From an uncultured Candidatus Saccharibacteria bacterium (GTDB lineage Bacteria > Patescibacteriota > Doudnabacteria > UBA920), in contig CAYQEU010000002.1 in NCBI GenBank assembly GCA_964416765.1, positions 14,877-78,876 on the forward strand: DNA of 64,000 nucleotides, read 5' to 3'. Positions 12,529-37,014 of the stretch are shown here, one piece after another; the stretch's first letter is position 1; the number at the start of each line of letters is the position of its first letter. Made by a program: the position numbers and the translations under genes. The notes under the pieces were generated by a model that was not told where the DNA came from, did not search any database, and saw only the letters and a list, made by a program, of their open reading frames with translations.

Positions 12529-12551
12529 TAATTTACAAATCACCCGTTTTA

Positions 12552-14538: not shown

Positions 14539-15810
14539 TTAACCTGCCATCCATAGCAGACACGCTAGCATGACCACGAAGGAGCTGTTAGCAATCATGC
14601 CCAGGTGCTGTATCTTGTAGTGCACCCCAATGGACACGGCCAGGAAAGTCATGAGTGCCACGATGCTGATGAGATAGAAGTTAAACTGGAAAGTATTGGT
14701 ATTAACCGTGTGTCCAAAGAAGTTCACGGAAGCACCCTTAACTGAAGGGGCAGAAAAGCTGGCTTCCAGAGTTGGAGCTATGCTGGCCAAGCGCGCGGTA
14801 ACAGTCTTGCCATTTATGTCGTAGGCAGTCAGGGTAACCGGTCCCGCAACCGGGGCGTATGAAGGCAGCACCATTTTCCAATTCCCATCGCCCGTTGGAT
14901 TCATCATGTAGGAATTTAAGCCGTAGGTGGCTATTACTTTTACCGCCCCTTGGCCCGCCGAAGTGGTAATGGTCAGCCCGGAATTTGTGGGCAAAATAAT
15001 TGAATTGCTCAGAGCCAGGGACGAATTAACTGCAGGGGCTGCAGTACTCGCGGCTGCTGCCGGTTGTTGCGCTGACTTGGCGGCAGGTAGCGCAGGCTGC
15101 TGGGCTTGGGCTACCGGGGCAGTTGCCGGAGCCACTTGGGTAGGCTCAGCCAGGGTCTTAACCTGAGGAGTGGAAGGTGTACCAAACATTTGGACTACAA
15201 AAATAGTATCGGCTCCCTCAAAGGTGCCTTCACTAATACCAATACCAATTTCCTCAAAATTGCGGTTTAAAATATTGGCGCGGTGGCCGGGAGAATTCAT
15301 CCAGGCGTCCTCAACGGTTTCCGCTTGGGTAAAATGTACAGCCAAGTTTTCACCGGCAGCCAGATAGGTGTAACCCGTGCCTTTGATCCAGTACCAGGGG
15401 TTATGGCCATCGGGGCTGTTGTGGGCAAAGTACTGCTTTTTTAACATATCATCCGCCTTGGCCTGCGCGGCCTTGGCGAGTTTAGCGTTATAGGTGAGGT
15501 CTTTGAGCCCATATTCCTGGCGGGATTGGTTAGTTAAGGCAATAACAGTATCTGAGGTAATAGCCGATGCATCAGCTATTTGGGGGCTAAGAGTAAGCAC
15601 TGGCAGGGCGATTGCGGCCACTTTGACGCTGATAAGCAGCAATGAAAAAAGGCCCAACACCCGGTGCCCTAAGACATGTGGGCGAAAGTCGTTGCCGGGG
15701 TGCGGAACTAAGTGGTCGTGAATAGAACGACCCAGTCGCGCGAACGTCGGAAACAACTCCCCTGTTGGTGAGCCTACAGATATAGCTAATTGACCTAACG
15801 CGTATTCCAT
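14539..15810 (-). CDS. CAP/SCP/PR1-like (YkwD-type) extracellular protein with N- and C-terminal TM segments.
   Basis: '...FAHNSPDGHNPWYWIKGTGY...GENLA...WMNSPGHRANIL...IGIGI' matches the CAP-domain signature. The exact start is uncertain. Confidence 0.65.
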   Translation of the reverse strand: MEYALGQLAISVGSPTGELFPTFARLGRSIHDHLVPHPGNDFRPHVLGHRVLGLFSLLLISVKVAAIALPVLTLSPQIADASAITSDTVIALTNQSRQEYGLKDLTYNAKLAKAAQAKADDMLKKQYFAHNSPDGHNPWYWIKGTGYTYLAAGENLAVHFTQAETVEDAWMNSPGHRANILNRNFEEIGIGISEGTFEGADTIFVVQMFGTPSTPQVKTLAEPTQVAPATAPVAQAQQPALPAAKSAQQPAAAASTAAPAVNSSLALSNSIILPTNSGLTITTSAGQGAVKVIATYGLNSYMMNPTGDGNWKMVLPSYAPVAGPVTLTAYDINGKTVTARLASIAPTLEASFSAPSVKGASVNFFGHTVNTNTFQFNFYLISIVALMTFLAVSIGVHYKIQHLGMIANSSFVVMLACLLWMAG

Positions 15811-16710: not shown

Positions 16711-16745
16711 CATCAAAACGCCCCAGAACGCAAGGGCTCTGGGGC
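16711..16745 (-). terminator. Rho-independent terminator after the 180-aa membrane protein gene.
   Basis: GCCCCAG...CTGGGGC hairpin followed, on the minus strand, by GTTTTGATG. Confidence 0.5.
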
Positions 16746-16765
16746 AATAAAAGGCTTAAAACAGG

Positions 16766-17308
16766 CTATTTATTGGAGTTTGTGGCCGGTTTGTTGGCGT
16801 TGCCACTTCCCGCGGCGTTGGAATTGGCGTTGGCGGGCTTTTTGGTGTTGGTATCGCCCGAGGGGCTGCTGCCTGTGTCTCCAAGGTTAACCGGAGCAAC
16901 TTCCTTTATCTTATTAAGCCTCTCGCTGAACAAAATGGCTTTCTTTGCTTGGGTGTAAATGAGGACCTTGTCGCCCACTTCCGCGGTGGCAAAGAAGGGC
17001 TGGTCCTTTAACGCTTCCAGGTCAGATACCGTGGCTATGGTCGGGGTTTCATCCGGCAGTACAATCAACTTGCCGACCTTGTCGAGCAACTCCTTGGTTT
17101 GGTCTTCGGTGGCTTTTTGCGGATTGGCCTTTAAGTCATTTAATTGCTGGCTCAAGGTTTGCACCCGGCGGTACTGCATGGCAAAGAAAATCGCAGCGGC
17201 CAACACTACCAGGATTACCAAGATCCAGGGGAGCATTCGCACGCCGCTCGCGCGTTGGACGTTGTCACCCGCATCGGACATTGCTTCATTTTTTTCTGTT
17301 TTTGGCAT
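16766..17308 (-). CDS. Membrane-anchored hypothetical protein (180 aa), last gene of the large surface operon.
   Basis: One TM segment. C-terminal low-complexity tail rich in N, A, K and G. Confidence 0.55.
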   Translation of the reverse strand: MPKTEKNEAMSDAGDNVQRASGVRMLPWILVILVVLAAAIFFAMQYRRVQTLSQQLNDLKANPQKATEDQTKELLDKVGKLIVLPDETPTIATVSDLEALKDQPFFATAEVGDKVLIYTQAKKAILFSERLNKIKEVAPVNLGDTGSSPSGDTNTKKPANANSNAAGSGNANKPATNSNK

Positions 17309-17414
17309 TTGTTTCTTTTAGGACTAATTACCTAATAATGGTAACAAAATATTCGGTCACTTTCAACCATTTTACCTATCCTAACTTGTAATAGCGCGTC
17401 TCGTTAGAATGGAA

Positions 17415-20400
17415 TTACGGGCTGGCGCTGCCGCCACCGCCACTGCCGCCACCGCCACCTGAAACGCCGCCGAAAGTTACTGTGGGCGCTGAGGTGTAAT
17501 TCATCCCGCCATTAGTAACATTTATCGCGGTAATCACATCGCCGGTCAGTACCGCCACAGCAGCTGCGCCCGTCCCTCCCCCATCGATAAAGTTTACTAC
17601 GGGGGCAATACCATAACTACTTCCTCCACATACCATGGTAACGGAAGTCACATGGTCCCCGGTGAGTATTGCTATTGCTATGGCGCTATTGCCACAGATG
17701 CCACCATTGCCGTCTGAACTGCCCCCGCCGGAGGAATTGCCGCTGCTGCCGCTGCCGCCTCCAGTGGGACCCCCGCCGCCGCCGTAAGAAACAAAGCCCC
17801 AACAGCTGCCATTATTTCCAATATTCACCAAGGTACCGTCATTGGTTATTGTAAATACTCCGCTGCAGCCGCTATCTTGCACGGAAAGATAAGAAAAGGA
17901 TGCAGTACCTGAAAGATCCATTAACCATTGCTGGCCCGGCGTATCTGAGCTTAAGGCTATAGGTCTTCCGGAAGTTCCCGTGACGGTTATACTATTTGCA
18001 AATGTGTAAGTCTTTCCGGCTTTAAATGTAAGAATTGAATTATCCGTAGTATCCGCGAAGTCATAAAAAGTTGTATCTGAGCTACCACCAACACTAGCCA
18101 CTCCTGTGGTACTGTTCGGTATTATAGTCACGCTACCATTGTTATGCGTAAACGTGCCGCTATTGCTAAGGTTCCCGGTAACAGTTAGGTTTGCCGGCGC
18201 AACAAATGTCCCGTTTGATATAGTTAATTCTCCGCCAAGGGTCGTTACTCCGGTTAAGGTGAGGGTACCGCTGCCAAGTTTGGTAAGACCAGCTGCTGAG
18301 CCAACCGTTCCGGCGAAGCTTACATCATTCCCATTGGTATCAATTATGGCTGTTTGGGTTAGCGTTACGGCTCTGTTAACAGGGGAAGTGATGTTGCCGG
18401 ATGCCTGCAAGGTTCCGCCATTAAAAATCAAAGTGTTGTTAACACCCCCGCTGCCCAGAGCAGCAGTCGCGTTTGCGACAATTGTGCCACCGCTGAGAGT
18501 TAGACTTCCTGTGAACGTATTGGCCCCAGAAAGCGTAAGAGTACCAGCACCGTCCTTAGTTAAGGTGCCGCTCGTAGTAGCAATGGCCCCGGTAATGGTG
18601 GTATCGCCCGCACCGCCAACAATTAGACTGCGCGCGTTGCCCGAAACTGAGGGGATAGTGAGTGACCCGCTGTCCGAATTTACACGAACCCCGGAAGAAC
18701 CAAGCGTTAGGGTTGCTTGAATAGCATTAGTATCACTAATGTTCCGTATCGCGCCAACATTATTTACTCCAGTACCGTTAGCAGTTATCAATTTGGTGCT
18801 TGGCAGGGTAATATTGCCCTGCAACTCCATTACCGCGCCTGATGTAATTGTTGTGGTAAGCGTGGTGCCGGACGCTCCCAACGCGTTGCTATTCTGCAGG
18901 TTGAGGTAGCCAGCGCTTAAAGCAATAGAAGTGCTCGTAAATGTATTGTCAGCGGATAAAGTAACCCTGCCCCCGGTGGTTTTGGAAATTCCTGCGGCAA
19001 CTGAACCTCCCAGTCGGGCGCTGACTAGGCCGCTTTGCAGGGCCGCGGTACCTGTTGTGGTCAAAACCGCGGTTGTTCCACCGGAATCTATTATTTGCCC
19101 GTCAGTTTGGAGGGTTATTATGCCGACGCTGTCGGAAATATTATTTAAGTCCAGAACTCCATTTACAACTGTTACGGCTCCGGTAGAAAGCATATTGGCT
19201 ACGCCATACTGCAAGGTTCCACCGCTAACAGTGGTTAACCCAGTGTGCCCCTGAGCGGAGGTGAACACAAGCGTGCCTGGGCCTGACTTGGTAATTGGCG
19301 CCGTTGTTACGGTTCCCGCTCCGCCCCAAGTGAGAACGGTACCCGGATTGGTAATGTCAAAGGTTGCGGCGATAGCGTTGGTGGTGGTGTAGGAGCGGTC
19401 AGTTGAAGCAGAACCGCCAGTATATTGCAGCGTTCCTACGGCTGTGTTAAATACGATATTGCCCGCTGCATTACTGGCTTGGCCAAGGTTGCCGGCCACG
19501 CCTCCGTTTCCAATAGTGCTGACACTTAAAGTTCCACCACTGATTGTGGTTATCCCGCTGTAAGTGTTAGTTCCGGCCAAAGTTACGGTCCCAGTAGTCG
19601 TCTTGGTCAAGTTTACAGCCCCTGCCAGGTTTGCGGTAATAGTGCCACTGGCCACTGCGTAAGAGCTTCCGGTAAAGGTTCCAGAACCGATGATGAATCC
19701 GCTGGTTAACGTTAATGTACCCAGCGTATCAGTGTAGGACTGAATATCCAGGGTGCCTCCCGCCACTGTTACCGCCGCCGAATCATTTATGATATTACTT
19801 GCCAAATATTGAACTGTGCCGGCATTAATAGTCAGCGTGCCCGTATTAGCAAATGTTTTGCTCAAAGTCAGTGAATCACCAGTACTCTTAGTCATGGCGA
19901 TTGCCGTGCCGCCCAACACCCCGCTAATACCACCGCCATAAAAAGTGTAGGCCGTGCCAGTAAGGACTCCCGGTGTACCGTTGCTGTCAGTAATCGTGCC
20001 GCCGTTTTGTATCGTTATGGCACCCACACTGTCAGTGTTACCATTGATATCAAGTATGCCACCGGCCACAGTGACAGCACCGGTGTTAATTGCGTTGGAG
20101 GTGCCATATTGTAAAGTCCCGCCGTTAATACGTGTTAAGCCGGTAGTGGTAGATGATCCGCTTAAAATTAAAGTGCCCGAGTCCCATTTAGTTAAAGTTG
20201 CTGAGGTCGCTGACGCCCCAAAAGACCCGGATATTGTAGTGGGACCACTGCCTCCCACTCCTAAGTTAATGGCGTTGGCTATCGTAACTGTACCAGTGAT
20301 ATTGATTGTCCCGCTGCCGTTGTTTGTAATGAGCGAGTTCGTGCTAACGGTCATGGCGCCGAAGTTATTATCGCTTCCGGCCGAACTGATTAAGGCCCCT

Positions 20401-23400
20401 CCATTTGCGATTCCTGTACCATTCAATGTTAGGGGTTCCCAAGTAGAGGCTCCGCCCACGACATAATTACTTAGATCGAGTACAGCTCCGGCAGACACAG
20501 TTACACCGCCCGCTATGGTACCAAGTGGCGTATTAGTAGCTCCGCCATTTGCTCCAACCTGAAGCACACCGGTGCTAACGGTCATGGCGCCGGTCATAGA
20601 GTTTTGCCCGGCGAGTACCAGCGTTCCAGACCCTTCTTTCACCAATGTCCCCGTACCTGACCAAACGCTGGCGGAAGATTGGGCAATATCACCCATGGTT
20701 ACGGTGGTTAACGCAAAGTTTCCCGAAATGGCACCGGCCAAAGTAAGAACACCACTGCCATAATTGGCTATGCGTGAAGCGGCACCAAGAGTAATAGCAC
20801 CGTTATACGATGTTGCGCTGCTTGAATTATTGATCAAGCTTCCTGTGCTTGCTATACCTGTTCCGTTTACTGTTAAGCTTTCAGTGGTGCTAAGGGTGTA
20901 GCCATTTAAATCGAGCATTGCGCCACTAGTAATAGTGGTAGCTCCACCTGTCGTTCCAAGTGGAGTGTTGGTACCGTCGCCTGCTGCTCCCAAGCGGAGG
21001 GTGCCCGCGCTTATTGTAGTCAGGCCGGTATATGAGCCAGAGCCGGATATTGTCCAGGTGCCAAGACCATTTTTAGTCAAGGTTCCAGTTGTGGTATTCA
21101 AATTGCTCGCCAATGTCCCATTTCCGGCGCCGCCGATTGTCAGTGCAAAAGTGTTCCCGGTTATATTTCCAGTGTTGGTAATATTAATATCCCCATAGTT
21201 CGAAATTATAGTGCTGGCAGCGCCCAAAGTAATAAGGCCGCTGTAGCTTGCAGCCACACTTGAATTATTCTGCAACGCACCCGTGGCCAAAGCGCCGCTC
21301 AAAGTGAGCGCTTCCGATGTAGCCAGCGTATATCCATTCAAATCAAGCGCGGATGAAGCACCAGAAATAGTGGTTCCGGCGGCCGTTGTTCCAAGCGGGG
21401 TGTTGGTACTGTCGCCCGTAGCCCCCAGTCTCAATGTTCCGGCACTCACCGTAGTCAAGCCTGTGTAAGTATTGTTGCCCGATAGCTCTAAAACCCCGGC
21501 GCCCGTGGATTTAGTCAGCGCGAAACTCCCACTAATGACAGCCGAAATTATCACGTCATTATCCATAAGACCATCACCAATATTAAAAGTACCACCAGCG
21601 CCCAGCGCCAGTTTACCAGTAATTAGGGTACTGACATTATTGTTGGCAATAGTGGTAAGCGCTCCCGTGGAAGTTGTTAGTGTACCAGCACCAGTTGTGA
21701 TGGCACCAGCATTTACAGTTAGCGCGCCGACTGTATCGGAATTGCCGGCTAAGTTATAGGTGCCGCCTACTATTGTTACACCTCCGCTTGAGATTGCATT
21801 ATTAACACCATAAGTCAGGGTCGCATTATTAACATAAGTGGTTCCGGTGTAGAGATTGGCCGCGCTAAGAGTAATGTTTCCCGGGCCATTCAGTGATAGT
21901 GACCCAGTTGTAGCGGTTCCAATTACAGCAGAGATAGTGGAACTGGCTGTGGCCAGGACATCCAGTTCAAAAGTTGTGATTCCCAAGGTAGTATTTGCAC
22001 CGGCAATATTATTGGCAGAGTTGATCAATACATTACCTGACAAAGAAGCGGAGGCTACAGGAAGAGTGACTCCACTCCCAGGGTTAGTGATATTAAAACC
22101 ATTTAAGATAAGTGAATTGGTATTTGTCGCTACTGCGGTGCGGTCCGCTGTTAATTTTACGTTGGCATTTGATGTAGCTAGATCGCCCGCATACTCGCCG
22201 GAAAACCCAGCGCCATTTAGCAAACGAAGCCCGTTGGTGTTGCCCACGTTGTAGGTGACCATATCACTTCCGGTACCCGTTAGGGAATTGTCCCCAAAAG
22301 CACCTTTGATAACACTAATGGTTTTTGAATTTGCTGATCCGCCGGCCCCAGTTAAGGTTGGAGTGGTGGAGAATATAAGCGAAGAAACGCCAGCCGCCGG
22401 GGTAGAGCCGAAATTAAGCCCACGGAACAGTACTGTAGCCCCGGCTGTACGGTTAAACCCTGGGTTATTGGCTACAGTCAAAGTCGTTCCGCTACCGCCG
22501 CTGCCGGCTTTTGGGTCTATGGTCACTATGTTATGTCCCGAAGCAAATGCCAATTGGCCAATTGTTTCAGTTACAGTGGTTGAATCTTTACCAATGAAGT
22601 TAAAGTTGCCGCCGTTCATGGTCAAAACCAATGCATTGCCCAAACGGTCAGCAACATTAGTGGTACTGTTATCAAGGGTCAACGTTGCGCCCAGGTTAAT
22701 GGTGATGGTAGTAGATACAGCAGTACCGTTGCCGCTTAGCACTAAAGTTCCCCCGTTAATTGCAGTCGTACTGCTAATAGTATTAGCCCCTGTTAAAGTA
22801 ACCGTGTTATTGGTGTTTTTTGCTACCGCGACCGCTCCTGCCAAAACCGCGCTAATGGTTCCGCTCTCCAGAGTATATCCAGTCGAGGTAAGAGTCCCGT
22901 TTTGAATGGTACCTCCCACAAGTGTAACCGTACCAACTGTGTCCGCCACTCCTCCCATGTCCCATGTCCCTCCTAAGATTGTCACCGGTGTGGCAGCCAA
23001 TAGGCCACTGGCGCCATAAGCAAAAGTACCGGAATAAACTCTGGTGGCTCCGGTATACGTGGCGGAACTATTGTTGGTTACTGTTCCGGCACCGTCCTTG
23101 CTGAATGTACCAGCCCCCATAGCCAATACACCGGTACTAAAGGTGGTATCGCCACCGCCTCCCACGTACAGCGAGAAAGCTCCGGTAACTCCACCGGTCA
23201 GCGTTAAAAGCCCAGATCCGGAATTTGTTATGCGCGAATCAGTTGCCTGAGTAATGGCTCCGCTATAACCGGTTGCGCTACTGGAATTGTTAATCAAAGC
23301 TCCGCCGCCATTTATTCCACGACCATTAAGCGTCAATGGTTCGGCTGCGGTCAGCGTAAATCCATTTAAATCTAATACCGCGCCGCTAAGCACAGAGGTG

Positions 23401-26400
23401 GCCCCTGACACGACGCCCAATGGCGTATTTGTACCTGAGCCTGCCGAGCCGATTATTAATGTTCCTACATTAACGCTAGTGGCACCCGTAAATGTGCTTG
23501 CGCCGGAAAGGGTCCAAGAACCGGTCCCAATCTTAGTAACCGTCCCGGTAGTGGTACCAATAATGCTGGATAGTGTACCGTTGCCTGTGCCACCAAGAGT
23601 TAAAGCCAATGCAGCCCCCGTTATGGTGCCGGAATTTGTTAAATTAATATCACCAAAATCCGCTTTAATGGTTGATGCCGAGCCAAGGGTAATTAGGCCG
23701 CTATATGTAACCGCAGAAGCGGAACTGTTCATAAGAACGCCGCTGGCAAAATCACCCAGACCATACCCGACACCGTTAATAGTGAGCGGTTCTGCCGCTG
23801 CTAGTGTATATCCATTTAAATCAAACCGAGCGCCGGCGGCAATTGTAGTAATACCGGCTACAGTACCGAGTGGGCTATTTGTGGCATCACCGGTACCTCC
23901 AAGTTTTAAGGTTCCGGCACTAATAGTGGTGGTACCCGTGTAAGAGTTACTGTTTGATGGAGTATAAGTACCGAACCCGTCTTTAGTAACCGTGGTAATA
24001 GTAGAAATAACCCCGGTTATATCAATATCACTAAACCCACCAACTGTAAGGGCAAAAGCACCGGAAATCCCCCCGCCTATGGTTATCTTGCCAAAATTAG
24101 CGCCAATACGACCAGTGTTATTTAACACTATATCGCCGTTCCAAGCCGCGGGAGTATTGGAAGTGTTGATCAGGGCGCCGCGTCCGCCAACCCCTGTTCC
24201 TCTCATTGTCAACGATTGGGCAGGATTGAGTGTAAAACCATTCATATCGAGCGTGGCACCATTGGCAATAGTGACACCACCAGCCGTTGTTCCAAGGGGA
24301 CCATATGTTCCATCACCGGCCGCGCCCAGTTGAAGAATTCCGCTGGTTACAGTTGTGGCACCTGTGTATACATTGTTCCTAGTCAGTATTACGGTGGCTT
24401 CTAGATTGGTGTTGGTGTTTATTTTTGTCACAGTTCCTGATCCGCCGATAATAGCGCTGATAGTGCCATCTCGAAGGCTATAAGATGTTCCGGTTAACAC
24501 CCCGGTCCCACCGGTAATAGTGCCGCCTTGAAGTGTTACAGCTCCAACGGCATTGTCGAAATTCCCAATATCCAAAGTTGAGCTATCTACAGTGACGGCA
24601 CTGGTGGACGGAATAGCATTGCTTACGCCAATGGTTAATTTCCCTCTATTGATTCTTGTCGCGCCAGTGTAACTCTTCGCGCTGGAAAAAGTCATGTTGC
24701 CCGCGCCGCTCTTTGTAAGACCGCCGCTAGTTGTAATATTTGCAGAAACATCAATGTCACCAACCATGCGCATGATAAACTCACTTGTCCCACCAGCTAA
24801 GGTCGTGTTGGCTCCGGCGATAACCGCGCCAGATGCGTGATTGATAATATTACCTGAAACAAAAGTTATTGTTTGCGGAGACCCCGGGTCCGTTATGCTT
24901 GCCCCGGTATCAAGGATTAAGGAATTAATTTGTGTGGTTGTTGCGGGTATAGAAGAAGAAAGCCGGACATTAGCATTGGTCACGGACATATCTGTTGTAT
25001 ATTCGTTGCTAAAGCCTGCGTGGTTCAATAAACGCAGTCCATTATTGTTGGCTCCGGATTCGTAAGTAACCATGTCGGTTCCGTCGCCAGAAGTGTCATT
25101 GTCGCCAAATACTCCTTGAAGAATACTTACGGTTGGAGTCCCCGGATTGCCATTATCACCCACCAAAGTCGGAGCCGTTTTAAACATTAGGGTCGATACG
25201 CCGGCACCAGGTGTAGAACCAAGGTTTGCCCCCCTAACCAACAACGACGCGCCTGCTGTGCGGGCAATTGACGCAAATCTTAGAACCGTAGACCCGCCTG
25301 AACCGGGATAAAAATTAATCTTGTTTTGTCCGGCACTAACAGTTAAGGCGCCTACTATGGACATAACACTGCCAGTAGAACTTCCATAAAGATTGAAGTC
25401 ACCGCCCGCCAGAGTTAGCGCCAGGGAATCTGACAAGCGATCCAGCTGTCCCGTTGTATTATCAATGTTAATGGCGCCGTCTGTGTTAATTTGCATAACC
25501 GTAGACTGGATTATGGAACCATTGCCGCTAAGAGTCAGCACCCCGTGGTTAACCGTCGTTGAACCCGTATAGGGATTAAAAGTATTTAGAGTCAAGGTTC
25601 CCGGTCCATTTTTTGTCAAAGTCCCAGCGCCAATGGCAATCGGACCGGTATCAAAGATTGTGTCTCCATCACCATCAACCGTCAAACCAAAAGCCCCTGT
25701 AACTCCTCCGTTAGAGATAGTCAGGGTAGCGCCCGCATCTGATTCAATAGTTGATGCCGCGGTCTGGGTGATTAGTCCCGTAATGGTATTGTTACCGTTT
25801 TGATTTTCAATTGCCCCGGCATTAATGAGCCCGGTGCCAGAGATAGATATGAATTCCGGGATCGACATTCCGTTGCCGTCAATAACCAAAGTAGCACCTG
25901 AGGTTACGGTTGTAACTCCGTCCACAGTACCCAGCGCTAAACTATTTTGAATACTCAAGATGCCGGCCGAAACAGAAACTGCCCCGGTGAATAAATTAGC
26001 CCGGGTCAACGTAACCGTTCCGGTGCTAGATTTAGTCAGGGTGCCGCCGGGACCGCCAAGTACAGCACTTATATTTCCGGCATAGACGGTGAAGGCGGCG
26101 CTGCTCAAAACTCCGGATGTCCCGGTAATTGTTCCGGATTGCCCGTCTAACGTGCCGAGCGTTACTGTACCAACCATGTCTGAATAGGAGGAAATATTCA
26201 AAGTCCCCGCAGTTACCGTAACAGCCCCCGAAAGGATCGCGTTATGGGTACCGTAAAGTAAGGTGCCCGCATTTACTGTTGTTAAGCCAGTGTAAGTATT
26301 GGGAAAATTATAAGTTAAGGTCCCACTTCCATTTTTTGTAACCGTCCCCGCGGCAGTACCAATAGGGGTAGTGGAATATGTGATATTACCGGCACCGTCA

Positions 26401-27236: not shown

Positions 27237-27252
27237 TGGGTTGATGTGCAAT

Positions 27253-29892
27253 TTAAGGGGTAGGGCCTGCACCTTCGGTTGCGGCAGATAAATCATCTTC
27301 CTGAGCGGTTGTGTTGTCTTCCGGAACGGTCGTGCTATCTCCGGCTACAGTGCCGGTATCTTCAGTAGGCGGCTCCTGGGCTGCTTGGGGTAATGAGTAA
27401 GTTACAATCGTGTAATTACCCGATGATTGGGTTATTACGGAAAGCTGATTATGGCTAAAAGTGTTGTAGCCCTCTTCTTTTGCTATTACCAAATAGTGGA
27501 CAATTGCCGGATTAGGCGTACCGTCTACGCCAAATGACTTGATAATAAACCCGGCGTAATTGCCGTTCTGGTCTTTTTTCCATGAGGCAATCTGGACGAA
27601 TACTGGACCATCACCCTCCGGAGTAAGCTGAACGACAGGTTTTCCGCTGCTAAGGTTGTGGCTGAATGTAATTTCAGCAGTCCCATCCGTTTCCGTGGCG
27701 ATTGAGCCGGCGAAGGTATCGTCTTGCATACTAATTAGGTTTTTGACGGCAACGACGCCCTGGGCATCAACGCTAAACAATTTACTATTGTCGGCGCTGA
27801 CCACGAACAACGTTTCAGAGGGGCTGTTGGGGCTGACATTGATTTCAGTAGCGCCATTATTGCGGACCAGCATGCGGCTAGTTTGCTGGTTTTGGACATT
27901 CAGAATATCCCCGCTTCCGTTTTGGTTTATCAAATAGGCCGCGGCATTGGTGGTGCTGGCAATCAGCTGAGTAGCCATTGTGCCGCGCTGTACATTTACG
28001 GAATTGTTAAACAGGTCAACCGTCTGGGTGGGATCATAATATATCGGGTTAACAAACACCAAAACCGTATTTCCGCTTAAACCGTTAAAGGAAGCTAAGG
28101 CTTGGCCGATCACCTTGCCGGGAGCTGTAGCTTTCATGGCATACCCGGGAATGGTAGCCGAACTGGTTAAGTAATCTCCGGGCTGGATAGTGCCATTTTC
28201 GATGGTTGCTTTAACCCGGACACGGCCAACCAATGCTACCGGTTGAGGATTGTCAGTAGGGTTAATGTTGTGGCCAATGCTGTTAAAGTCCCCGGCGTCT
28301 TCAATATTGGAAACCACTCCCACGAGATTGCTTTGGTAAGCGGAAGTTGTCTTAACCACTTTTACCAACCGGTCTCCCTGGGTGGTGGTTACATAGTTTG
28401 TTCCTGAGCTCACTACGTCAGCGGTTTGTATGTTGGGTTCAGCCGGATAAAATTCCATGTAGTCAGCGCCCGGTCCCGGGTTACAATCTTTAATAGCATC
28501 TAATCCCGTACCGTTTGTGTCATGGCACAAGGTAAAGTTGCCCGTGGACGAAGCAAGGTTGACGCTGGTGTTTCCGCTGTTGTCCACTTTAAACTTCGTG
28601 GTTCCTCCCGACTTGGCATTGATGAAGTTACCCGAGGCAAAAGTGCCGGAGTTGTTAGCAACATCAAACAATAATAAATTGCCGGTGTAGGCGCTAGATT
28701 CCTGGTAAATATCCACCATATCCGCGCTGGTCGCGTCATTGGTATAAGCACGGATGGCATTGCCGCGGGTTTTCGTGGTAGAATTCGCGCCGTTGTCCAA
28801 GTCCGCATATATGGCAGCTGGCTGAACTATGGAAGCTGCCTGGGACGTAGTGGTAGCCTGAAGGCCGAAAGTATAACCATAGCTGGCAATGCCAGTATTA
28901 ACCCCGTTTACATTGGAGCCGCTGTAGGCCTGGACTTCCAATCCCCGGACCACCTGCCCGGTGCCAAGCGAAGAATTATCAATCATTCTAATAAACTGGC
29001 CGTCGTAAGTTCCCGCCTGGCTGCCGCTGCTGGGAATTGTTGAAATGAACCGATTACCAAACTCAAAACCGGAAGCGGTCGCATTGCTCAGCGTATAATC
29101 TCCGAATATGCCTGCAATCGCGCTGCTGCCGCTGCTTGTAATGCTGTTAGTCAAAGTCAGGAGACCCTGTGACTGGATGCCGCCCGAACCCACACTAAGG
29201 TAAGTGCCCACGTTCAAGGCGCCGCCCGTTGTCACATCGCCGCCGGAGAAGTTAAAACCGGCGGAACTTCCAGTAGCCGTAAAGGTGGTTAGTCCGGCTG
29301 ATGAAACACCTAAAGTAAGCAGGTTGGAACCGTCGTAAGCAAGTGTAGCCTGGGGTACTGTTGTGTTGGTAAGGTAAATTATGCCATTGCCCTGGAGACT
29401 GTTGGCTATCATGGCCGCCGGAACCGCGCCCAGTGTTCTGCGAGGGGACATTTCCCCATCCCAGGACGGGGAACCGGTGCCGCCAATGTTGACTCCCAAA
29501 TAAAGCGTCTGGTTAAAGTCCACGCCGCTTAATGAAGTGACTTCGCCCAGCATAACGCTGAATACCCCATTTGTTATCTGCACCTTGTTAGCACCCGTGC
29601 GGGTTTCTGTCCAAAGCGCGGCTCCCCCGGTGGATACGTTGTACAATTTGAATTCTATGTTGTACTGTCCATCAGCAACCGCAACGTTGCTTAGGTTAGT
29701 AAGTTTGGCCTGGTAACTAATTTGGTTATTAATCCCTGTGGCCTGTGCCGTGCTTCCAGGCAAGGAAAGACCGAGAAGAATGAACAGTGCCACCGCGCAA
29801 AGCATGCCCATGGCAAAAGTAGATATGACAAGGGGGTGTTGACGGGTGGGCATGGCAGTAACCAGGCGCCAATTAAAAGCTGGGCGGTTCAT
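27253..29892 (-). CDS. Surface protein (879 aa), paralogous at both termini to the 1503-aa protein.
   Basis: N-terminal TM. Module 'LWTETRTG...NGVFSVMLG...DGEMSPR'. Conserved block 'LVGVVS...PVALVGRVRVKATIENGTIQPGDYLTSSATIPGYAMKA'. Shared C-terminal module. Confidence 0.8.
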   Translation of the reverse strand: MNRPAFNWRLVTAMPTRQHPLVISTFAMGMLCAVALFILLGLSLPGSTAQATGINNQISYQAKLTNLSNVAVADGQYNIEFKLYNVSTGGAALWTETRTGANKVQITNGVFSVMLGEVTSLSGVDFNQTLYLGVNIGGTGSPSWDGEMSPRRTLGAVPAAMIANSLQGNGIIYLTNTTVPQATLAYDGSNLLTLGVSSAGLTTFTATGSSAGFNFSGGDVTTGGALNVGTYLSVGSGGIQSQGLLTLTNSITSSGSSAIAGIFGDYTLSNATASGFEFGNRFISTIPSSGSQAGTYDGQFIRMIDNSSLGTGQVVRGLEVQAYSGSNVNGVNTGIASYGYTFGLQATTTSQAASIVQPAAIYADLDNGANSTTKTRGNAIRAYTNDATSADMVDIYQESSAYTGNLLLFDVANNSGTFASGNFINAKSGGTTKFKVDNSGNTSVNLASSTGNFTLCHDTNGTGLDAIKDCNPGPGADYMEFYPAEPNIQTADVVSSGTNYVTTTQGDRLVKVVKTTSAYQSNLVGVVSNIEDAGDFNSIGHNINPTDNPQPVALVGRVRVKATIENGTIQPGDYLTSSATIPGYAMKATAPGKVIGQALASFNGLSGNTVLVFVNPIYYDPTQTVDLFNNSVNVQRGTMATQLIASTTNAAAYLINQNGSGDILNVQNQQTSRMLVRNNGATEINVSPNSPSETLFVVSADNSKLFSVDAQGVVAVKNLISMQDDTFAGSIATETDGTAEITFSHNLSSGKPVVQLTPEGDGPVFVQIASWKKDQNGNYAGFIIKSFGVDGTPNPAIVHYLVIAKEEGYNTFSHNQLSVITQSSGNYTIVTYSLPQAAQEPPTEDTGTVAGDSTTVPEDNTTAQEDDLSAATEGAGPTP

Positions 29893-30134
29893 ACAACCAC
29901 CTCCTTCTTTGCGGACCTTAAGTGCTTATGCTGCTGTTTGGTCAGATACGACAAAACCCACTCACGGGTGGTTAACCAGTTGCGGGCAATTTTTATGGCT
30001 CTTAAATGTCCGGTGCGGGCGCGGAAGCTTAGATATTCCGAGGAATAAGGGGTAAGGCTAGCAGCCTCGGAAATTGAGATCAAATCGCTCAAATCACCAG
30101 AAATCACATAGGATTTGTGATCCTTTTGTAACAT
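29889..30134 (-). CDS. Small helix-turn-helix DNA-binding protein (excisionase/MerR-superfamily-like), 81 aa.
   Basis: 'ISISEAASLTPYSSEYLSFRARTGHLRAIKIARNWLTTREWVLSYL' is an HTH_17-like pattern. Its stop overlaps the next gene's start as ATGA. Confidence 0.55.
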   Translation of the reverse strand: MLQKDHKSYVISGDLSDLISISEAASLTPYSSEYLSFRARTGHLRAIKIARNWLTTREWVLSYLTKQQHKHLRSAKKEVVV

Positions 30135-30263
30135 TTTATGTAATTTTGTTTTTGTTTCTTTGATTTATGGCTAATTTTGGCCAAAAACCATATTCGCTAT
30201 CCGATACTTTTCTAACCTAAGTATACCAGAAAATAGACAAATTGTCAATATTTAAGCCTGTAT

Positions 30264-31544
30264 TTAAAGGAGAAGGGTCAGCAAAATACAGACAGCAAGC
30301 AATAAACTACTTAAAACTGCCGTAATTATGAGGAAATTGTGGTAATTGCCAGTTTTTTCTACGGCATTAGCGCCTATTTCCAAGGCTGGCACCAGCCTTT
30401 TTCTGATTTCAAATTGTCCGGACACTGTTTGAATGAGCTTTTTGGAATCGTCAAACAGATTAATTGCGTATGTGTACGTTCCGGGTGGAAAATTCGGCAG
30501 CGTTACCTCAAAAGTTTGGTTGCTCTTATTAACTGAAAACAGGTACATATATTCGGGTCCGGACAATTCCCTGCTTTTAACAGCAATAATTATGCTTGAA
30601 GTTGCTTGGGGCACGCTTGTTATGGGAATCGAAATCGTCAGATTGGATAATTCCGGTACCACAGCGCTAAAAGGATCCAAGGAATGTATGCCATGGTCAT
30701 AGGTAAAGATGAAGTTTTTGAGTTCGACCGGCAAAGCAGGCTTGGTTGCGGCGGGAATAAATTTAGTATCAACCACGGGGGCCCTCACTTGCCCGCTATT
30801 CTCGCTGTACCAAAGGATTATGGCGGTTACAAGAGACCCAGAAGAATAATTGCCGGCATGGTCGCGGGAAAACACCGTGTAGTAATATAGCACGCCTGGG
30901 TTGGCGGTATTGTCTTCTATGGCAAGATGATTGCCCTCATAAATCACCTGACCGTTAAGGGGGTCCAGAGGGAAAAATCTGTCAGAACGGACCACCCGGA
31001 CAGCCTCAAAATCTTTCTCGGGCGGGGCAGTCCATGACAAACTAATCCGATCGTTTAATGCTGTGGCCACCAAGTTTGAAACATTCGAGGGGGGCGTGGT
31101 ATCCGGCGCCAACGTTGTAGTAAACTTTTCCGAATAGAATACAGACCGGCCATAGGGGTCTGTGGCAACTATTTGGTAATAGTAATTGGTGCCCGGTTTT
31201 AAGTCCGGGATAAAAGCGGAGTCTTCTTTTGTAAACTGCTCGGTGCTAACCTGGCCGTCCGAATATTCAGTGTTTCTGCCCCATAGGACGCGAACCAGAC
31301 TGACAATGCTGGTATGCCAGGAAACAATCGCGCTGTCTGATTTGGCCTCCACAGAGACATTGTATATTTGATTAGGCTCTGTACCTGTCCCACCCCCGCC
31401 GCCGTTGTTATTGGGAGGAGCATTCCCAAGAATAGGCTGAGTAACATTTAGGCTGCCCGTGGCGGCGAGTGTAATTAAAGGCAGACAGAGAGCACTTAAA
31501 ACAAAAAAACCCAGCACCAGGGTTTTGGCCAAACGACTTCCCAT
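30264..31544 (-). CDS. Fibronectin type III-domain surface protein with a C-terminal TM anchor (426 aa).
   Basis: Signal peptide. Two FN3-like units ('YNVSVEAKSDSAIVSWH...GTNYYYQIVATDPYG', 'SNLVATALNDRISLSWTAPP...YYYTVFSRDHAGN'). C-terminal 'LIITAVLSSLLLAVCILLTLLL'. Confidence 0.7.
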   Translation of the reverse strand: MGSRLAKTLVLGFFVLSALCLPLITLAATGSLNVTQPILGNAPPNNNGGGGGTGTEPNQIYNVSVEAKSDSAIVSWHTSIVSLVRVLWGRNTEYSDGQVSTEQFTKEDSAFIPDLKPGTNYYYQIVATDPYGRSVFYSEKFTTTLAPDTTPPSNVSNLVATALNDRISLSWTAPPEKDFEAVRVVRSDRFFPLDPLNGQVIYEGNHLAIEDNTANPGVLYYYTVFSRDHAGNYSSGSLVTAIILWYSENSGQVRAPVVDTKFIPAATKPALPVELKNFIFTYDHGIHSLDPFSAVVPELSNLTISIPITSVPQATSSIIIAVKSRELSGPEYMYLFSVNKSNQTFEVTLPNFPPGTYTYAINLFDDSKKLIQTVSGQFEIRKRLVPALEIGANAVEKTGNYHNFLIITAVLSSLLLAVCILLTLLL

Positions 31545-31546
31545 AA

Positions 31547-32302
31547 TTATAAAGGCAAGGCCGTTACTATTACCGTGGTTGTGTAAGACCCTCCGGGCTG
31601 AAGATGGTTATTGCCGGATTCGGCTTTCATTTTAACGGTAGTGGTGGTTCCAGTCGGGTGGTTACCGCTGGTCCGCTGGGCGATAGGCTGGTCGGAAGTT
31701 GAAAGAGCGCCCCAGCATTGGTCTACCGAGTCCAATACGCCTGCGTTGCATGAACTCCCATTATCCCTGAACTTCTGTATTATATCTGGTCCTTCCGGGG
31801 TAAAACCAAATTCGCTGTCGGAAGAATTGACCGTCCAGGTGTAATCGGGGTCGCTGCCGGCCGGGGTGTAATCGGCGAAGCTACTGGTTCCACTTTTCAG
31901 GGCCGGGGAAGTGGTGGCGCGTACATTAAGGGTATAGCCGGCAGGGTTGTCGGTTATTACAGTCCAGCTGGTGCTACCGGTACCGGACCCCCCTGAAACA
32001 CCACTGATAGAAGGACTTAAAGCCACATCCGATGCCTGGGTAATAGAAAGGTAAACATTTTGCACAGCCAAAAACCCGGAATTGATTTTATAACTTGAAC
32101 TGGCAGCGTCACCAGTACCAACTTCGCCTATACTATCGACGGCTTGGTAAGAAGCGGAATTGGAAAGCCCTCCCCCAACATCAACAGAATCGACGGGAAT
32201 TTTATAACTGCCGCTGCTCATTTGAGCCATGCCAGTATGGCCGGAAACCAAAAAAAGCAGCAACGCTATGACAACTGCCAAACTGAACCTATTGCCAAGC
32301 AT
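31547..32302 (-). CDS. WxL-like secreted surface protein (251 aa).
   Basis: Signal peptide. First motif 'GSTSWTVITDNPAGYTLNV'. C-terminal 'PGGSYTTTVIVTALPL' (compare WxL 'GNYTGTLTWTL..AP'). Confidence 0.7.
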   Translation of the reverse strand: MLGNRFSLAVVIALLLFLVSGHTGMAQMSSGSYKIPVDSVDVGGGLSNSASYQAVDSIGEVGTGDAASSSYKINSGFLAVQNVYLSITQASDVALSPSISGVSGGSGTGSTSWTVITDNPAGYTLNVRATTSPALKSGTSSFADYTPAGSDPDYTWTVNSSDSEFGFTPEGPDIIQKFRDNGSSCNAGVLDSVDQCWGALSTSDQPIAQRTSGNHPTGTTTTVKMKAESGNNHLQPGGSYTTTVIVTALPL

Positions 32303-32305
32303 AAA

Positions 32306-33283
32306 CTACTTTCTCCGTCTTATTTCAAAAGACCGTAATATGATGCGGAGAAGCAATGCCACAAGAAGGATTGCAATGACTATAGCGACCAAGATTTTCC
32401 ATGGCAGGATCCAAAATACTATAGTTTTGGAGTCAACTACATCCGGCGAACTCTTGTACCCACGATTTAAATTTATAGTGGCGGTATAGCGGCCAAACGC
32501 AAATCCGGAATCATCCCAGGAAATCTGCGCCGCGCGGAGAGAATCGGGCAAACTAAAGAAGGGGGTTACATCCAGTTCAGCCACTTTCTTGCCGATAATA
32601 TTTTTAATAATAACCTTACCGCTTGGGGTTAAATGGACGCTACTGTTATTTTCAAAAAGCGCCTCAAAATTATAGGGTCCTTTTTCATAAACCGATTTTC
32701 CGTCTTCCATTCGGAAGTCGGCCAAATGGGCGTCTTCCTTTACGCTTCCAGCCACCCTGACGAAATATAAAGCTCCAAGCCGCGAAACCGTTTTGGCATC
32801 CGTAAGATCCTGTCCCCCTGTACCTTCTGAAGAAGAGGATACCAGGACTGAGCCGTATAATCCGCCTGGTTCGGCATCCAGCGGGATGGAAAATTGAATA
32901 TTGATATTGGCCCGTTGTTTAGATTTAAGCTTAAACGTTTTTACTTCGGGCTTTATGAAATCCTTTAAGGAATAAGGCCCTTTATCCGAGCCTAACAATA
33001 CCACTACCTGTTTGGGATCCTGAGAACCCTTAAAGTCTTCGACATCAATGCTAAATAGTTTTTCACTATCAGTACGATTAACTATGGAGAGAGTTTTGGT
33101 AATTTTGTCTCCGGGCTTAACGGAAATTTCGGTTTTTGCCGGTTCGAGAACAAAATCATTCCTCACCTCAACCGTCGCGTCCTTTATCTCCAAAGCCTTA
33201 GCGGGATGAGAATATAAAAGCAAACCCGACACTGAGAGTGCCAGGATAATAAATTTGGGGTATGAGCGGAAAGGTCTTGCCAT
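32306..33283 (-). CDS. DUF916/CscA-like cell-surface protein (325 aa).
   Basis: Signal peptide, beta-rich domain, 'FAFGRYTATINL', 'FWILPWK', then a TM and 'RSFEIRRRK' tail. Paralog of 9605-10621. Confidence 0.65.
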   Translation of the reverse strand: MARPFRSYPKFIILALSVSGLLLYSHPAKALEIKDATVEVRNDFVLEPAKTEISVKPGDKITKTLSIVNRTDSEKLFSIDVEDFKGSQDPKQVVVLLGSDKGPYSLKDFIKPEVKTFKLKSKQRANINIQFSIPLDAEPGGLYGSVLVSSSSEGTGGQDLTDAKTVSRLGALYFVRVAGSVKEDAHLADFRMEDGKSVYEKGPYNFEALFENNSSVHLTPSGKVIIKNIIGKKVAELDVTPFFSLPDSLRAAQISWDDSGFAFGRYTATINLNRGYKSSPDVVDSKTIVFWILPWKILVAIVIAILLVALLLRIILRSFEIRRRK

Positions 33284-33287
33284 GTCT

Positions 33288-33938
33288 CTACTGAGCTGTT
33301 GCTGTAGCGGTTATGGTAGCGCTATAAGTTCCCGCCGCGGCAAAGATACCGTTTTGTTCGGTGGCCACGCATATATTGGTAGCTGTTCCGGAAGTCCCCG
33401 TTGGTGAACTGCTGCTGGAAATCTGATCTGCAGAACCAGTAAGGTCGAAGTCTCGCCATTTCAATGTTGTACTGGGAACATTTGCGCCGGCAACACAATC
33501 TGAGTCTGTACCCCAGGTACCCGTAGGGGTGTGGGTTCCAAATGCTGAGTAGCCAAATTCAGCCGCACTGGAAACACTCCAGGTTTCTGGAGTTTCTGAT
33601 ACTGCTGGGGTGTAGTCAGCGATGTTGCCGCCGCCGCCAGAACGGGAAAGGGCTGGGGCGGTAGATGCATACACCGTAAGATTATATCCGCCAGCGGAGT
33701 TTGTGGTAACAGTCCAAGCTGCTGTACCTACGGAAGTATTTTGGGAGGTGGACAGGGCAGTCATGGTAATATCAGACGGGCTGGAAATAGTAATCCCGGT
33801 GGTAACACTCTGAGTGACGTCAATGCTGTCGGATGCTGATTGCGCGTAAGTATCGGAAGGTTCAATCAAGGAAAATACCAGCCCTACAATGAAGACTGCT
33901 GAGATTAGAATGGCGGCTGCGGGAATGACCTTTTTCAT
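33288..33938 (-). CDS. WxL-like secreted surface protein (216 aa).
   Basis: Signal peptide. 'GTAAWTVTTNSAGGYNLTV'. C-terminal 'AAGTYSATITATATAQ'. Confidence 0.7.
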   Translation of the reverse strand: MKKVIPAAAILISAVFIVGLVFSLIEPSDTYAQSASDSIDVTQSVTTGITISSPSDITMTALSTSQNTSVGTAAWTVTTNSAGGYNLTVYASTAPALSRSGGGGNIADYTPAVSETPETWSVSSAAEFGYSAFGTHTPTGTWGTDSDCVAGANVPSTTLKWRDFDLTGSADQISSSSSPTGTSGTATNICVATEQNGIFAAAGTYSATITATATAQ

Positions 33939-33997
33939 GGATTTAGGGAAGATTTATTTTAATTTCTCTTATAGTTATGGGGGTTACCCTTGAAAAT

Positions 33998-34006
33998 ATT
34001 ATAGCA
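33998..34006 (-). promoter_or_regulatory. Extended -10 promoter (minus strand: TTTATGCTATAAT) for the 33938->16766 surface operon.
   Basis: TGnTATAAT about 60 nt upstream of the first WxL-like gene start. Confidence 0.45.
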
Positions 34007-35404: not shown

Positions 35405-35550
35405 TTCTGTTTGACAGCAAGATAGCGAAAAGAAAGTGTAATACAATTACGTCGTTTCAGTATTGTGCATCTATATAGATAGATGACGACCACGGAATGT
35501 CCTAGTTCGGATTCGAAAATCAACGAACATCAGAAATTATATTCCTTAGA

Positions 35551-37014
<1,464 letters not shown>

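Follow-up and report, generated by a model that had tools for sequence, protein, structure and literature searches.

CPR bacteria attach to host cells, and their means of holding on are largely unknown. In enterococci, lactobacilli and Listeria, WxL clusters are important for colonising the gut and for virulence, through a mechanism that is unsettled. These clusters, also called Csc, have been described from Lactobacillales and Listeria (Siezen 2006; Hassan & Williamson, PMC10599100; PDB 9i1y, 9i25), and by definition a WxL cluster has a WxLIP with two or more WxL-domain proteins (PF13731, dual Trp-x-Leu) no further than four genes away (PMC10599100). The Pam pilus became known in 2026, through work on a single cultured strain of Saccharimonadia, Candidatus Mycosynbacter amalyticus (Troman et al., bioRxiv 10.64898/2026.03.03.709456), and is represented by the profiles NF058579 (PamT) and NF058581 (CPR_Pam_pilin_C). 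The pam operon encodes TM-anchored chaperones, the single-domain subunit PamT and PamR, an FnIII-plus-TM protein with an N-terminal strand; hairpin completion was proposed for PamC/PamD and a role as base anchor for PamR, and Pam pilins were reported mainly in Saccharimonadia and Microgenomatia (bioRxiv 10.64898/2026.03.03.709456).

Here we analysed a locus within a window of 64,000 nucleotides (the whole stretch of DNA under study) from an uncultured, ultra-small CPR bacterium. The locus probably encodes an usher-less, chaperone-assisted surface-fibre module of Pam type together with large adhesin-like cargo. Its features, with the evidence for each, are as follows.

33998..34006, minus strand: P1, extended -10 element TGCTATAAT upstream of the first gene (conserved 9-mer)
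33288..33938, minus strand: 216-aa type A pilin-domain protein (ORF, paralogy, synteny)
32306..33283, minus strand: 325-aa WxLIP-like chaperone candidate (profile, fold, TM)
31547..32302, minus strand: 251-aa type B PamT-like subunit (NCBIfam PamT match, synteny)
30264..31544, minus strand: 426-aa PamR-like anchor (fn3, C-terminal TM, N-terminal co-variation)
30220..30248, minus strand: P2, sigma-70-type promoter (TTGACA-17-TGgTATACT, 11/12 match)
29889..30134, minus strand: 81-aa HTH protein, candidate regulator (weak HTH_17/excisionase-type match)
27253..29892, minus strand: 879-aa secreted large protein, candidate distal fibre or adhesin (conserved N-terminal domain)
17415..27236, minus strand: 3273-aa PATR-repeat giant with signal peptide (PF12951; start per independent gene call)
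16766..17308, minus strand: 180-aa single-pass membrane protein (TM at 20-47; orthologue position)
16719..16746, minus strand: terminator-like hairpin (11-bp stem, 7 GC, then TTTTGATG)

Reading of the ORFs gave eight co-directional genes, all on the minus strand, between window positions 16766 and 33938. The sizes, places and shared direction given in the initial annotation agree with these ORFs, while its count of nine genes is one too many. The intergenic distances are 4, 3, 2, 129, -4, 16 and 106 nt, in gene order, and the negative value is the ATGA overlap that couples the 81-aa HTH gene to the next gene, as had been noted. All structural products begin with a hydrophobic, signal-peptide-like segment, and none of the eight proteins carries an LPXTG-type C-terminal signal. 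No Usher family match was found among the eight proteins with Pfam or NCBIfam, nor is there a candidate beta-barrel gene at the locus. The cluster is flanked by a 16S rRNA gene and housekeeping genes.

The extended -10 element TGCTATAAT lies exactly at 34006-33998, where it had been placed, with no -35 match upstream of it. The same nine letters precede the orthologous first gene in five of six close relatives, the sixth having TGGTATAAT. A second promoter, P2, sits in the 129-nt gap before the 81-aa gene (30248-30220); it is near-perfect (11/12, with TG) and is kept in 8 of 9 relatives despite divergent spacers. Because P2 lies inside the locus and is conserved, the locus is probably two transcription units, with read-through possible, and the proposal of a single promoter for all genes is doubtful. 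P2 would drive the last four genes, from the HTH gene through to the gene for the 180-aa membrane protein. The terminator-like hairpin at 16746-16719 closes the locus 20 nt past the last stop codon.

Genes for pilin A, the chaperone, pilin B, the FN3-TM anchor and a large protein follow one another in this order in at least 80 species-level CPR loci, and the order is conserved across CPR classes. Since these first five gene types keep their order in 80 species-level loci, the cluster is not a chance arrangement. The named relatives that carry the module belong mostly to Parcubacteria-type lineages.

The 325-aa protein provides the link to WxL clusters. It has a signal peptide, two Ig-like domains and a C-terminal TM (285-321) with a basic tail, the features on which an earlier DUF916/CscA-like call had been based, and that call proved right. 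While PF06030 scores 21.6 bits against the 325-aa protein alone, below the Pfam cut-off of 27.3, it is matched by 32 of the 42 members of the family; for DUF3324 there was no Pfam match to the 325-aa protein. Comparison of the family profile with the PDB returned the E. faecium WxLIP (EfmWxLIP1; E 1.8e-5), and hhalign against five Enterococcus WxLIPs gave 97.7% (E 2.3e-12, 253 columns). The AF2 model (pLDDT 91.8) consists of two beta-sandwich domains and a helix at 295-318, with a disordered hairpin around residues 148-167. Its top Foldseek matches are the E. faecium WxLIP structures 9i1y/9i25, with RbmA also among the top matches (E 2e-9), followed by the chaperone-usher chaperones CsuC, Caf1M, CfaA and FimC (E 5e-8 to 1e-6). 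The 325-aa protein is a true WxLIP homologue (DUF916/DUF3324 plus TM) over both domains, and its predicted structure resembles chaperones of the PapD/CsuC type. There are 398 confirmed relatives of this chaperone among GTDB species genomes. The model also shares the trait given for the Pam chaperones, a PapD/FimC-like fold that keeps its C-terminal TM helix, as judged from their published description. A connection between WxLIP and Pam is absent from the Pam preprint and from the literature searched. The membrane-anchored chaperone candidate of this probable Pam-type fibre links two surface systems that have so far been described separately.

The chaperone gene lies between two genes for small pilin-like proteins. 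The 216-aa type A protein has a signal peptide with a conserved E-P, a mature N-terminal strand (SDSIDVTQSV) and a Pam-pilin-like beta-sandwich. The 251-aa type B protein has a signal peptide, a conserved extension of about 50 aa with three S-x-x-Y motifs, and a pilin-like domain in which two Cys are invariant. Although some of its residues are invariant, the extension is disordered in the model of the monomer, as one would expect if it takes up its fold solely within a complex. The two proteins are paralogous (35% over 139 aa, E 4e-12; A2 HMM E 7.7e-25), and their positions are sorted: type A lies upstream of the chaperone and has no extension in 71 of 71 loci, and type B lies downstream and has it in 73 of 74. 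The best structural matches of the small-protein model are CsuA/B, CupE (SCPU), class 5 and type 1 pilins, and TasA-like fibres; Foldseek with the 251-aa model gave TLP-1b/1a and the TasA fibre as best matches (E 8e-3 to 2e-2). The predicted structures of the 216- and 251-aa proteins each contain a single pilin-like beta-sandwich, whose fold is closest to CsuA/B. An incomplete Ig-like pilin and a two-domain Ig-like chaperone are thus present as in chaperone-usher pili, a resemblance of structure only, with no sequence similarity.

Several comparisons tie these subunits to the Pam pilus. The PamT profile NF058579 matches the 251-aa protein (E 1.5e-11, 44 bits against an equivalog cut-off of 240 bits) over residues 5-131, corresponding to model positions 3-129 of 241, and it matches 46 of 46 family members (best E 1.7e-14). 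At the level of sequence, this match shows that the 251-aa protein is homologous to PamT in its N-terminal half, and does not establish it as an equivalog. Direct matches to NF058581 are rare (1/46 and 2/42), and hhalign of the C-terminal domain of the 216/251 proteins with the window's Pam_pilin_C-matching proteins gave 94.4% (E 8.8e-8), which by profile comparison shows the domain to be homologous to the Pam_pilin_C-like domain. A two-domain major pilin of PamA/PamB type (nine-strand N-terminal sandwich, linker strand, C-terminal domain) is not among the eight genes; candidates for such pilins occur only in a second module of the window (432 and 445 aa). A sequence search of the PDB returned neither PamA nor PamB.

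The 426-aa protein has a signal peptide, an N-terminal strand (GSLNVTQPIL), a Gly-rich linker, FN3 domains (fn3 E 4.6e-6, above cut-off) and a C-terminal hydrophobic segment or TM at 401-426, which bears out its initial annotation as an FN3 protein with a C-terminal TM. It is present in 66 of 81 loci, where the N-terminal strand is conserved and is followed by a Gly- or Cys-rich linker. The architecture of FnIII, C-terminal TM and N-terminal strand is that of PamR, with which it was compared by description. Across 54 loci, the best 9-mer score between the N-termini of type A and anchor was 24.9 within a locus and 17.9 across loci, a within-locus score reached in 0 of 20,000 permutations; internal-window controls showed little or no effect. 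The strand preceding the type B domain did not co-vary with either type A or the anchor. In these sequences, the anchor and type A co-vary at their mature N-termini, which is what a donor strand would lead one to expect. Processing or modification common to both N-termini could alternatively explain the co-variation.

Among the proteins encoded downstream of P2, the 81-aa protein weakly matches HTH_17 (Pfam, E 0.11) and TIGR01764 (E 0.068); its orthologues hold the same position in 8 close relatives, and in other lineages this domain also forms the N-terminal part of proteins of 260-500 aa encoded upstream of the module. The 879-aa protein has a conserved N-terminal domain of about 220 aa (INYQGKLT..W.E..NGLFSV.LG..WDGEM.PRK), and over residues ~45-260 it is matched, in more than 40 loci, by the product of the gene that follows the anchor, with proteins of up to 2498 aa. 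It has no Pfam, NCBIfam, PHROG, PDB or phage match, and hhalign found no similarity of the N-terminal domain to pilins. A candidate C-terminal donor strand, LSVITQ, was dropped, the C-terminal part not being conserved. The giant was correctly described as a PATR protein of about 3270 aa: it has 16 PATR stretches (PF12951, E 2.3e-58) and measures 3273 aa from an independent gene-call start (longest ORF 3293 aa). No homologue of it occurs in the 80 other loci, so the giant was rejected as a conserved module partner and is cargo specific to the present locus, outside the conserved module. The suggested coupling to large surface proteins is conserved for the 879-aa class and not for the PATR giant. 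The 180-aa protein has a TM at 20-47 followed by a coiled-coil-like, low-complexity tail; its orthologues follow the large protein in loci L002 and L007, and it weakly matches an Rz-like spanin PHROG (E 2.4e-3).

With the Pam pilus as described, the locus shares restriction to CPR, Sec export, absence of an usher, Ig-like pilin domains similar to those of chaperone-usher pili, a single-domain subunit that resembles PamT in its N-terminal half, a proposed base anchor of FnIII-plus-TM type with an N-terminal strand, and a co-localised large protein of 'tail fibre-like' kind. It differs in having one chaperone where Pam has two, two single-domain subunits and no two-domain PamA/PamB/PamE major pilin, HMM scores far below the curated cut-offs, and additional genes for the HTH protein, the PATR giant and the 180-aa membrane protein; moreover, among the named relatives the module is mostly of Parcubacteria-type lineages, whereas Pam pilins are mainly from Saccharimonadia/Microgenomatia. 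Unlike archaic chaperone-usher pili (Csu of Acinetobacter, CupE/SCPU), to which it has no sequence similarity, it lacks an outer-membrane usher and its chaperone is tethered to the cytoplasmic membrane.

A complex of Csc/WxL type that does not polymerise, in which strand complementation lets the WxLIP-like protein keep a small and a large partner at the wall, no filament forms and the small proteins are extremely diverged WxL domains, deserves consideration but seems unlikely. The WxLIP homology extends over both domains and the TM, a major pilin of PamA/B type is missing from the operon, and the parts list (small partner, large surface protein, small anchored protein) is common to WxL clusters. 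Three short motifs of WxL also align in the same order with the 251-aa protein. The motifs cited for a WxL assignment are indeed present in the small proteins (sWTV..PAGYTLNV; GSYTTTVIV and GTYSATITA), but the assignment itself is not supported: Pfam WxL matched 0 of 46 family members and neither the 216-aa nor the 251-aa protein, neither contains a W-x-L motif, and the small-protein model is closest to Csu-type pilins and TasA-like fibres rather than to the WxL chain of 9i25, the very outcome that had been named in advance as refuting the idea. We also rejected WxL membership on profile comparisons, all of which were at chance: a PDB sequence profile gave nothing better, and hhalign gave 0.4-0.7% against three WxL alignments, which included a purpose-built Enterococcus small-WxL family and seven canonical WxL domains from Enterococcus plasmids, a negative result of low power since the within-WxL control reached only 20%. 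By these searches, the locus has no detectable pair of WxL-domain proteins near its WxLIP homologue. It further differs from WxL clusters in its CPR host, in a conserved domain of the large protein that is N-terminal and not a C-terminal WxL, and in an FN3-TM anchor in place of the small LPXTG-anchored protein of CscD type, of which there is none at the locus.

The weak Foldseek similarity of the 251-aa model to TLP-1b/1a and TasA, donor-strand fibres of monoderm cells, and the RbmA match of the 325-aa model would suit a self-assembling TasA/TLP-like fibre, in which the small proteins polymerise without a chaperone and the 325-aa protein is a wall-spanning anchor or RbmA-like scaffold. We consider this improbable. 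That the genes are merely adjacent, or a prophage remnant comprising an excisionase-like HTH protein, a tail-fibre-like protein and a spanin-like membrane protein with no single system, is very improbable indeed. The excisionase and spanin matches and the internal promoter that splits the locus speak for it, but gene order is kept in 80 species-level loci across many lineages of CPR bacteria, no hallmark genes of phages were seen, and the surroundings are the 16S rRNA gene and housekeeping genes. A prophage origin was rejected on the conserved order, the lack of a phage match to the 879-aa N-terminal domain and the lack of a PHROG hit for either large protein.

For a Pam-type fibre module, we infer the following order of filament assembly. 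After Sec export, the long chaperone hairpin would complete the open fold of each subunit, as in the solved WxLIP-WxL complex and as suggested for PamC/PamD. In WxLIP too, a long hairpin stands at the end of domain 1 and is predicted to fill in the beta-sandwich of the partner. Type A subunits would polymerise, each lending its N-terminal strand SDSIDVTQSV to the subunit that follows, with the PamT-like type B protein at the tip or as an adaptor. The FN3-TM protein would insert its look-alike N-terminal strand in the last subunit, ending growth and tying the fibre to the membrane. The 879-aa protein, via its conserved N-terminal domain, would be the distal fibre or adhesin.

The locus would be a simpler relative of the Pam system, built from a pair of single-domain subunits with a single chaperone and a single anchor. 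This module recurs in at least 80 species-level loci of many lineages, and its chaperone is tied by sequence and structure to the WxLIP of enterococci, lactobacilli and Listeria. The co-varying N-terminal strands offer a concrete prediction on fibre anchoring that can be tested by mutation. We tentatively suggest, as a possibility short of an expectation, that a single ancient fibre system of single-membrane bacteria, working without an usher, gave rise to two branches, the WxL/Csc clusters of Firmicutes and the Pam-type modules of CPR bacteria. In that system, a WxLIP-type chaperone tethered to the membrane would complete open Ig-like subunits by donating a strand. On this view, WxL domains would be pilin domains that have diverged, and the Parcubacteria-type module (WxLIP homologue, PamT-like subunits and FN3-TM anchor) the connecting form, mounting very large adhesins on the cell. 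If such shared ancestry is true, lessons would be transferable between the two systems; one could ask, for instance, whether WxL proteins polymerise and whether CPR fibres bind peptidoglycan.

Eight minus-strand open reading frames run from 33938 to 16766 and encode, in order, proteins of 216, 325, 251, 426, 81, 879, about 3270 and 180 aa, with intergenic gaps of 4, 3, 2, 129, -4, 16 and 106 nt. An independent gene call on a public contig that carries the locus at 100% identity gives the same genes, with the giant starting at an internal ATG (window 27236; 3273 aa). The initial annotation had these sizes right and counted nine genes where there are eight. It placed an extended -10 element, TGCTATAAT, at 34006-33998, exactly where it lies; the element also stands 5′ of the orthologous first gene in five of six close relatives, the sixth having TGGTATAAT in its place. 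The claim of one promoter for the whole locus is doubtful, since a second promoter was found within it, kept in eight of nine relatives despite a diverging spacer.

30248-30220, minus strand: near-consensus promoter TTGACA-17-TGgTATACT, within the 129-nt gap before the 81-aa gene
16746-16719, minus strand: strong terminator-like hairpin at the 3′ end of the locus

Because this internal promoter is conserved, the sequence makes two transcription units, 216-325-251-426 and 81-879-giant-180, the more likely arrangement; no terminator was found between the two. Just upstream of the locus lies a complete 16S rRNA gene (35550-37013, minus strand; Rfam 1427 bits), and the whole window is without a 23S rRNA match. 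A tRNA-Ile/tRNA-Ala pair, usually located in rRNA spacers, is found 32 kb away (2763-3171, plus strand), adjoining no rRNA. The rRNA genes appear to be unlinked.

The 325-aa protein had been called DUF916-like, and this was borne out. Alone, it scores below the cut-off of the Pfam WxLIP_PGBD (DUF916) model (E 2.3e-4; 21.6 bits, cut-off 27.3); the model is matched by 32 of 42 members of its family (best E 3.7e-9), and some of the family's 434 database matches carry the NCBI name DUF916. A PDB search with the family profile found E. faecium WxLIP1 (E 1.8e-5), and hhalign with five WxLIPs of Enterococcus, drawn from annotated WxL clusters, gave 97.7% (E 2.3e-12) over 253 columns, spanning both domains and the transmembrane (TM) region. 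In the confident AF2 model (pLDDT 91.8), a signal peptide precedes a pair of beta-sandwiches and a C-terminal helix spans 295-318, with lower confidence in a hairpin at ~148-167. Foldseek with this model against the PDB puts solved WxLIP structures first (9i1y and 9i25, E about 1e-10), followed by RbmA and then the chaperones CsuC, Caf1M, CfaA and FimC. For WxLIP, AlphaFold2 predicts that a strand from the equivalent hairpin inserts into and completes the WxL sandwich (PMC10599100), and a complex of WxLIP with a long WxL protein has been solved (PDB 9i25, per entry title). Profile and fold comparisons together identify the 325-aa protein as a WxLIP homologue, whose model looks like a tethered pilus chaperone.

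The 216-aa and 251-aa proteins are paralogues (35% over 139 aa, E 4e-12) and had been assigned to the WxL family. This assignment found no support: Pfam WxL matches neither protein and none of 46 relatives, both sequences lack a W-x-L motif, and hhalign of the small-protein family against three WxL alignments gave 0.4-0.7% (E about 0.1). The WxL chain of 9i25, an entry included in the Foldseek library, is in neither list of best structural matches, an outcome by which the initial annotation itself would have the WxL assignment refuted. With the C-terminal domain shared by a further pair of window proteins, hhalign of the same family gave 94.4% (E 8.8e-8, 125 columns); one of the pair matches NF058581 ('CPR_Pam_pilin_C') along the full length of the model. 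In NCBIfam the 251-aa protein matches NF058579, named for the CPR-type pilus protein PamT, at E 1.5e-11; the alignment is confined to its N-terminal half and scores well short of the equivalog cut-off. All 46 relatives match this model too. In the AF2 model of the 251-aa protein (pLDDT 79), residues 79-251 form a confident beta-sandwich and residues 24-78, some of them invariant, are disordered. The negative WxL comparison carries limited weight, as the within-WxL hhalign control reached only 20%, and the motifs originally noted are present and align with WxL in the same order; a very remote relationship may therefore exist but is unsupported. On sequence and model comparisons, both proteins are pilin-like and Pam-related, and not detectably WxL.

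Two conserved features of these subunits are located as follows.

32149-32208 region (251-aa residues ~31-76; also 445-aa residues ~84-158): conserved ~50-aa segment, disordered in the 251-aa monomer model
33861-33866 (residues 26-27 of the 216-aa protein): Glu-Pro of type A subunits, the class of the 216-aa protein; also in type A of the related loci L002-L075

The ~50-aa segment, with three S-x-x-Y-x-hydrophobic units and invariant D38, G44, S49, G59, E60 and G76, is common to type B subunits (the 251-aa class), a 445-aa protein and the PamT model. The nearly invariant Glu-Pro (at least 90% conserved, 42 sequences) closes type A signal peptides about 6-8 residues before the mature N-terminus, and may mark a dedicated processing site. 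Two or more tandem type A genes lie 5′ of the chaperone in several lineages (loci L005, L008, L009, L038, L044, L060, L068), as expected of variant major structural subunits.

A paralogous second module, separate from the eight-gene locus, occupies window 3206-13925.

12627-13925, plus strand: 432-aa protein, C-terminus matching the full NF058581 CPR_Pam_pilin_C model (E 6.5e-5)
11987-10650, minus strand: 445-aa protein, S-x-x-Y N-terminal motif as in the 251-aa protein, paralogous C-domain
10621-9605, minus strand: 338-aa WxLIP-like protein, above the Pfam DUF916 cut-off (46 bits, E 6.6e-12)
9443-4932, minus strand: 1503-aa protein, N-terminus 37% identical to that of the 879-aa protein
4911-3721, minus strand: 396-aa Gly-linker and C-terminal-TM protein

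It also includes a 170-aa lipoprotein-like protein. The two WxLIP-like proteins are 31% identical. Here WxLIP-type and Pam-pilin-type genes stand side by side, and this module is nearer the published pam operon than is the eight-gene locus.

Among GTDB species, each represented by a single genome, a scan confirmed 398 chaperone relatives. Synteny was counted in the best 80 loci of these. Their names include Zambryskii-, Yonath-, Taylor-, Nomura-, Campbell-, Falkow-, Jackson-, Buchanan-, Magasanik- and Nealsonbacteria and Paceibacterota, and many bear the submitter label 'uncultured Candidatus Saccharibacteria' (as deposited). Gene order is pilin-like, chaperone, pilin-like, FN3-TM and large protein, with 251-like genes in 74/81, FN3-TM in 66/81 and 879-like in 45/81 (many contigs truncated). 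An N-terminal extension is absent from the gene 5′ of the chaperone in 71 of 71 cases and present in the pilin-like gene 3′ of it in 73 of 74. The five-part module is conserved; the giant, with its 16 PATR stretches, is not, having no counterpart in any other locus. The archaeal name under which one locus with the full CPR module was submitted (L022, DATGWK010000115.1; 'Candidatus Nanoarchaeia archaeon') probably reflects a mistake in binning or labelling.

The giant's C-terminal ~130 aa (window 17415-17800) comprise a Gly/Ser-rich linker and two ~35-aa repeats (..LTGD.(V/I)T.(V/I).(V/M)..GG..Y..AP.V.F..GG), with neither a TM segment nor a sorting signal. Members of the 879-aa class, up to 2498 aa long, have only a ~220-aa N-terminal domain in common, and in two close relatives the 180-aa membrane protein again comes after the large protein. 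In CPR lineages further removed, the HTH domain seen in the 81-aa protein stands at the N-terminus of longer proteins (260-500 aa) encoded just 5′ of the module, sometimes duplicated, which suggests a dedicated regulator family.

L013 7817-9277; L014 7894-9159; L016, L023, L031, L042, L047, L053, L054 and other related loci: larger HTH-domain proteins
14539-15810, minus strand: secreted-looking CAP/SCP-domain protein, 423 aa (E 1e-21)
47669-51082, minus strand: secreted-looking 1137-aa protein with a DUF11 repeat

The mature type A N-terminus is SDSIDVTQSV here and TDDVxVxQxVT, EDQFxVxQ or DSVDVSL in other clades, and within a locus it resembles that of the FN3-TM protein, where the strand is followed by a Gly- or Cys-rich linker. 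Across 54 loci the best 9-mer score was 24.9 within a locus compared to 17.9 across loci, and no re-pairing out of 20,000 came up to the within-locus value, while internal control windows showed little or no effect (13.8 compared to 12.8, and 11.9 compared to 13.0). The type B strand showed no co-variation. Such matching of two unrelated proteins, genome by genome, is as expected if both strands fit the same groove, and so counts as evidence for a donor-strand anchor; shared N-terminal processing is an alternative source of the likeness. The groove-sharing explanation mirrors the proposal that the N-terminal strand of PamR enters the final pilin subunit, ending and anchoring the Pam pilus (bioRxiv 10.64898/2026.03.03.709456).

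The same preprint presents PamA and PamB as solved by cryo-EM, and describes TM-anchored PapD-like PamC and PamD, single-domain PamT, FnIII-plus-TM PamR and a tail-fibre-like gene co-localised with the pam genes (bioRxiv 10.64898/2026.03.03.709456). The eight-gene operon follows the same logic, but with a single chaperone and no two-domain major pilins; it is therefore a variant of the Pam system rather than a member. It also falls outside the published WxL cluster definition of one WxLIP plus two WxL proteins (PMC10599100), because the WxL feature fails. The initial annotation was thus largely correct in observation and half so in interpretation, its DUF916/WxLIP part standing and its WxL assignment and conserved giant partner not.

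The best-supported reading, which we consider probable, is that the locus encodes a chaperone-assisted fibre module of the Pam type, which has no usher and combines a membrane anchor with a large distal protein; we infer the order in which such a fibre would assemble. The Pam preprint makes no mention of WxL, DUF916 or WxLIP (bioRxiv 10.64898/2026.03.03.709456), a search pairing WxL with Patescibacteria found a single paper, unrelated to the subject, and one combining DUF916 with CPR names had no paper with DUF916 in it among the ten best matches listed. The chaperone link between the Pam and WxL systems therefore looks unreported in the literature searched. A WxL-Pam connection, if it extended to the subunits, would raise the interest of the locus.
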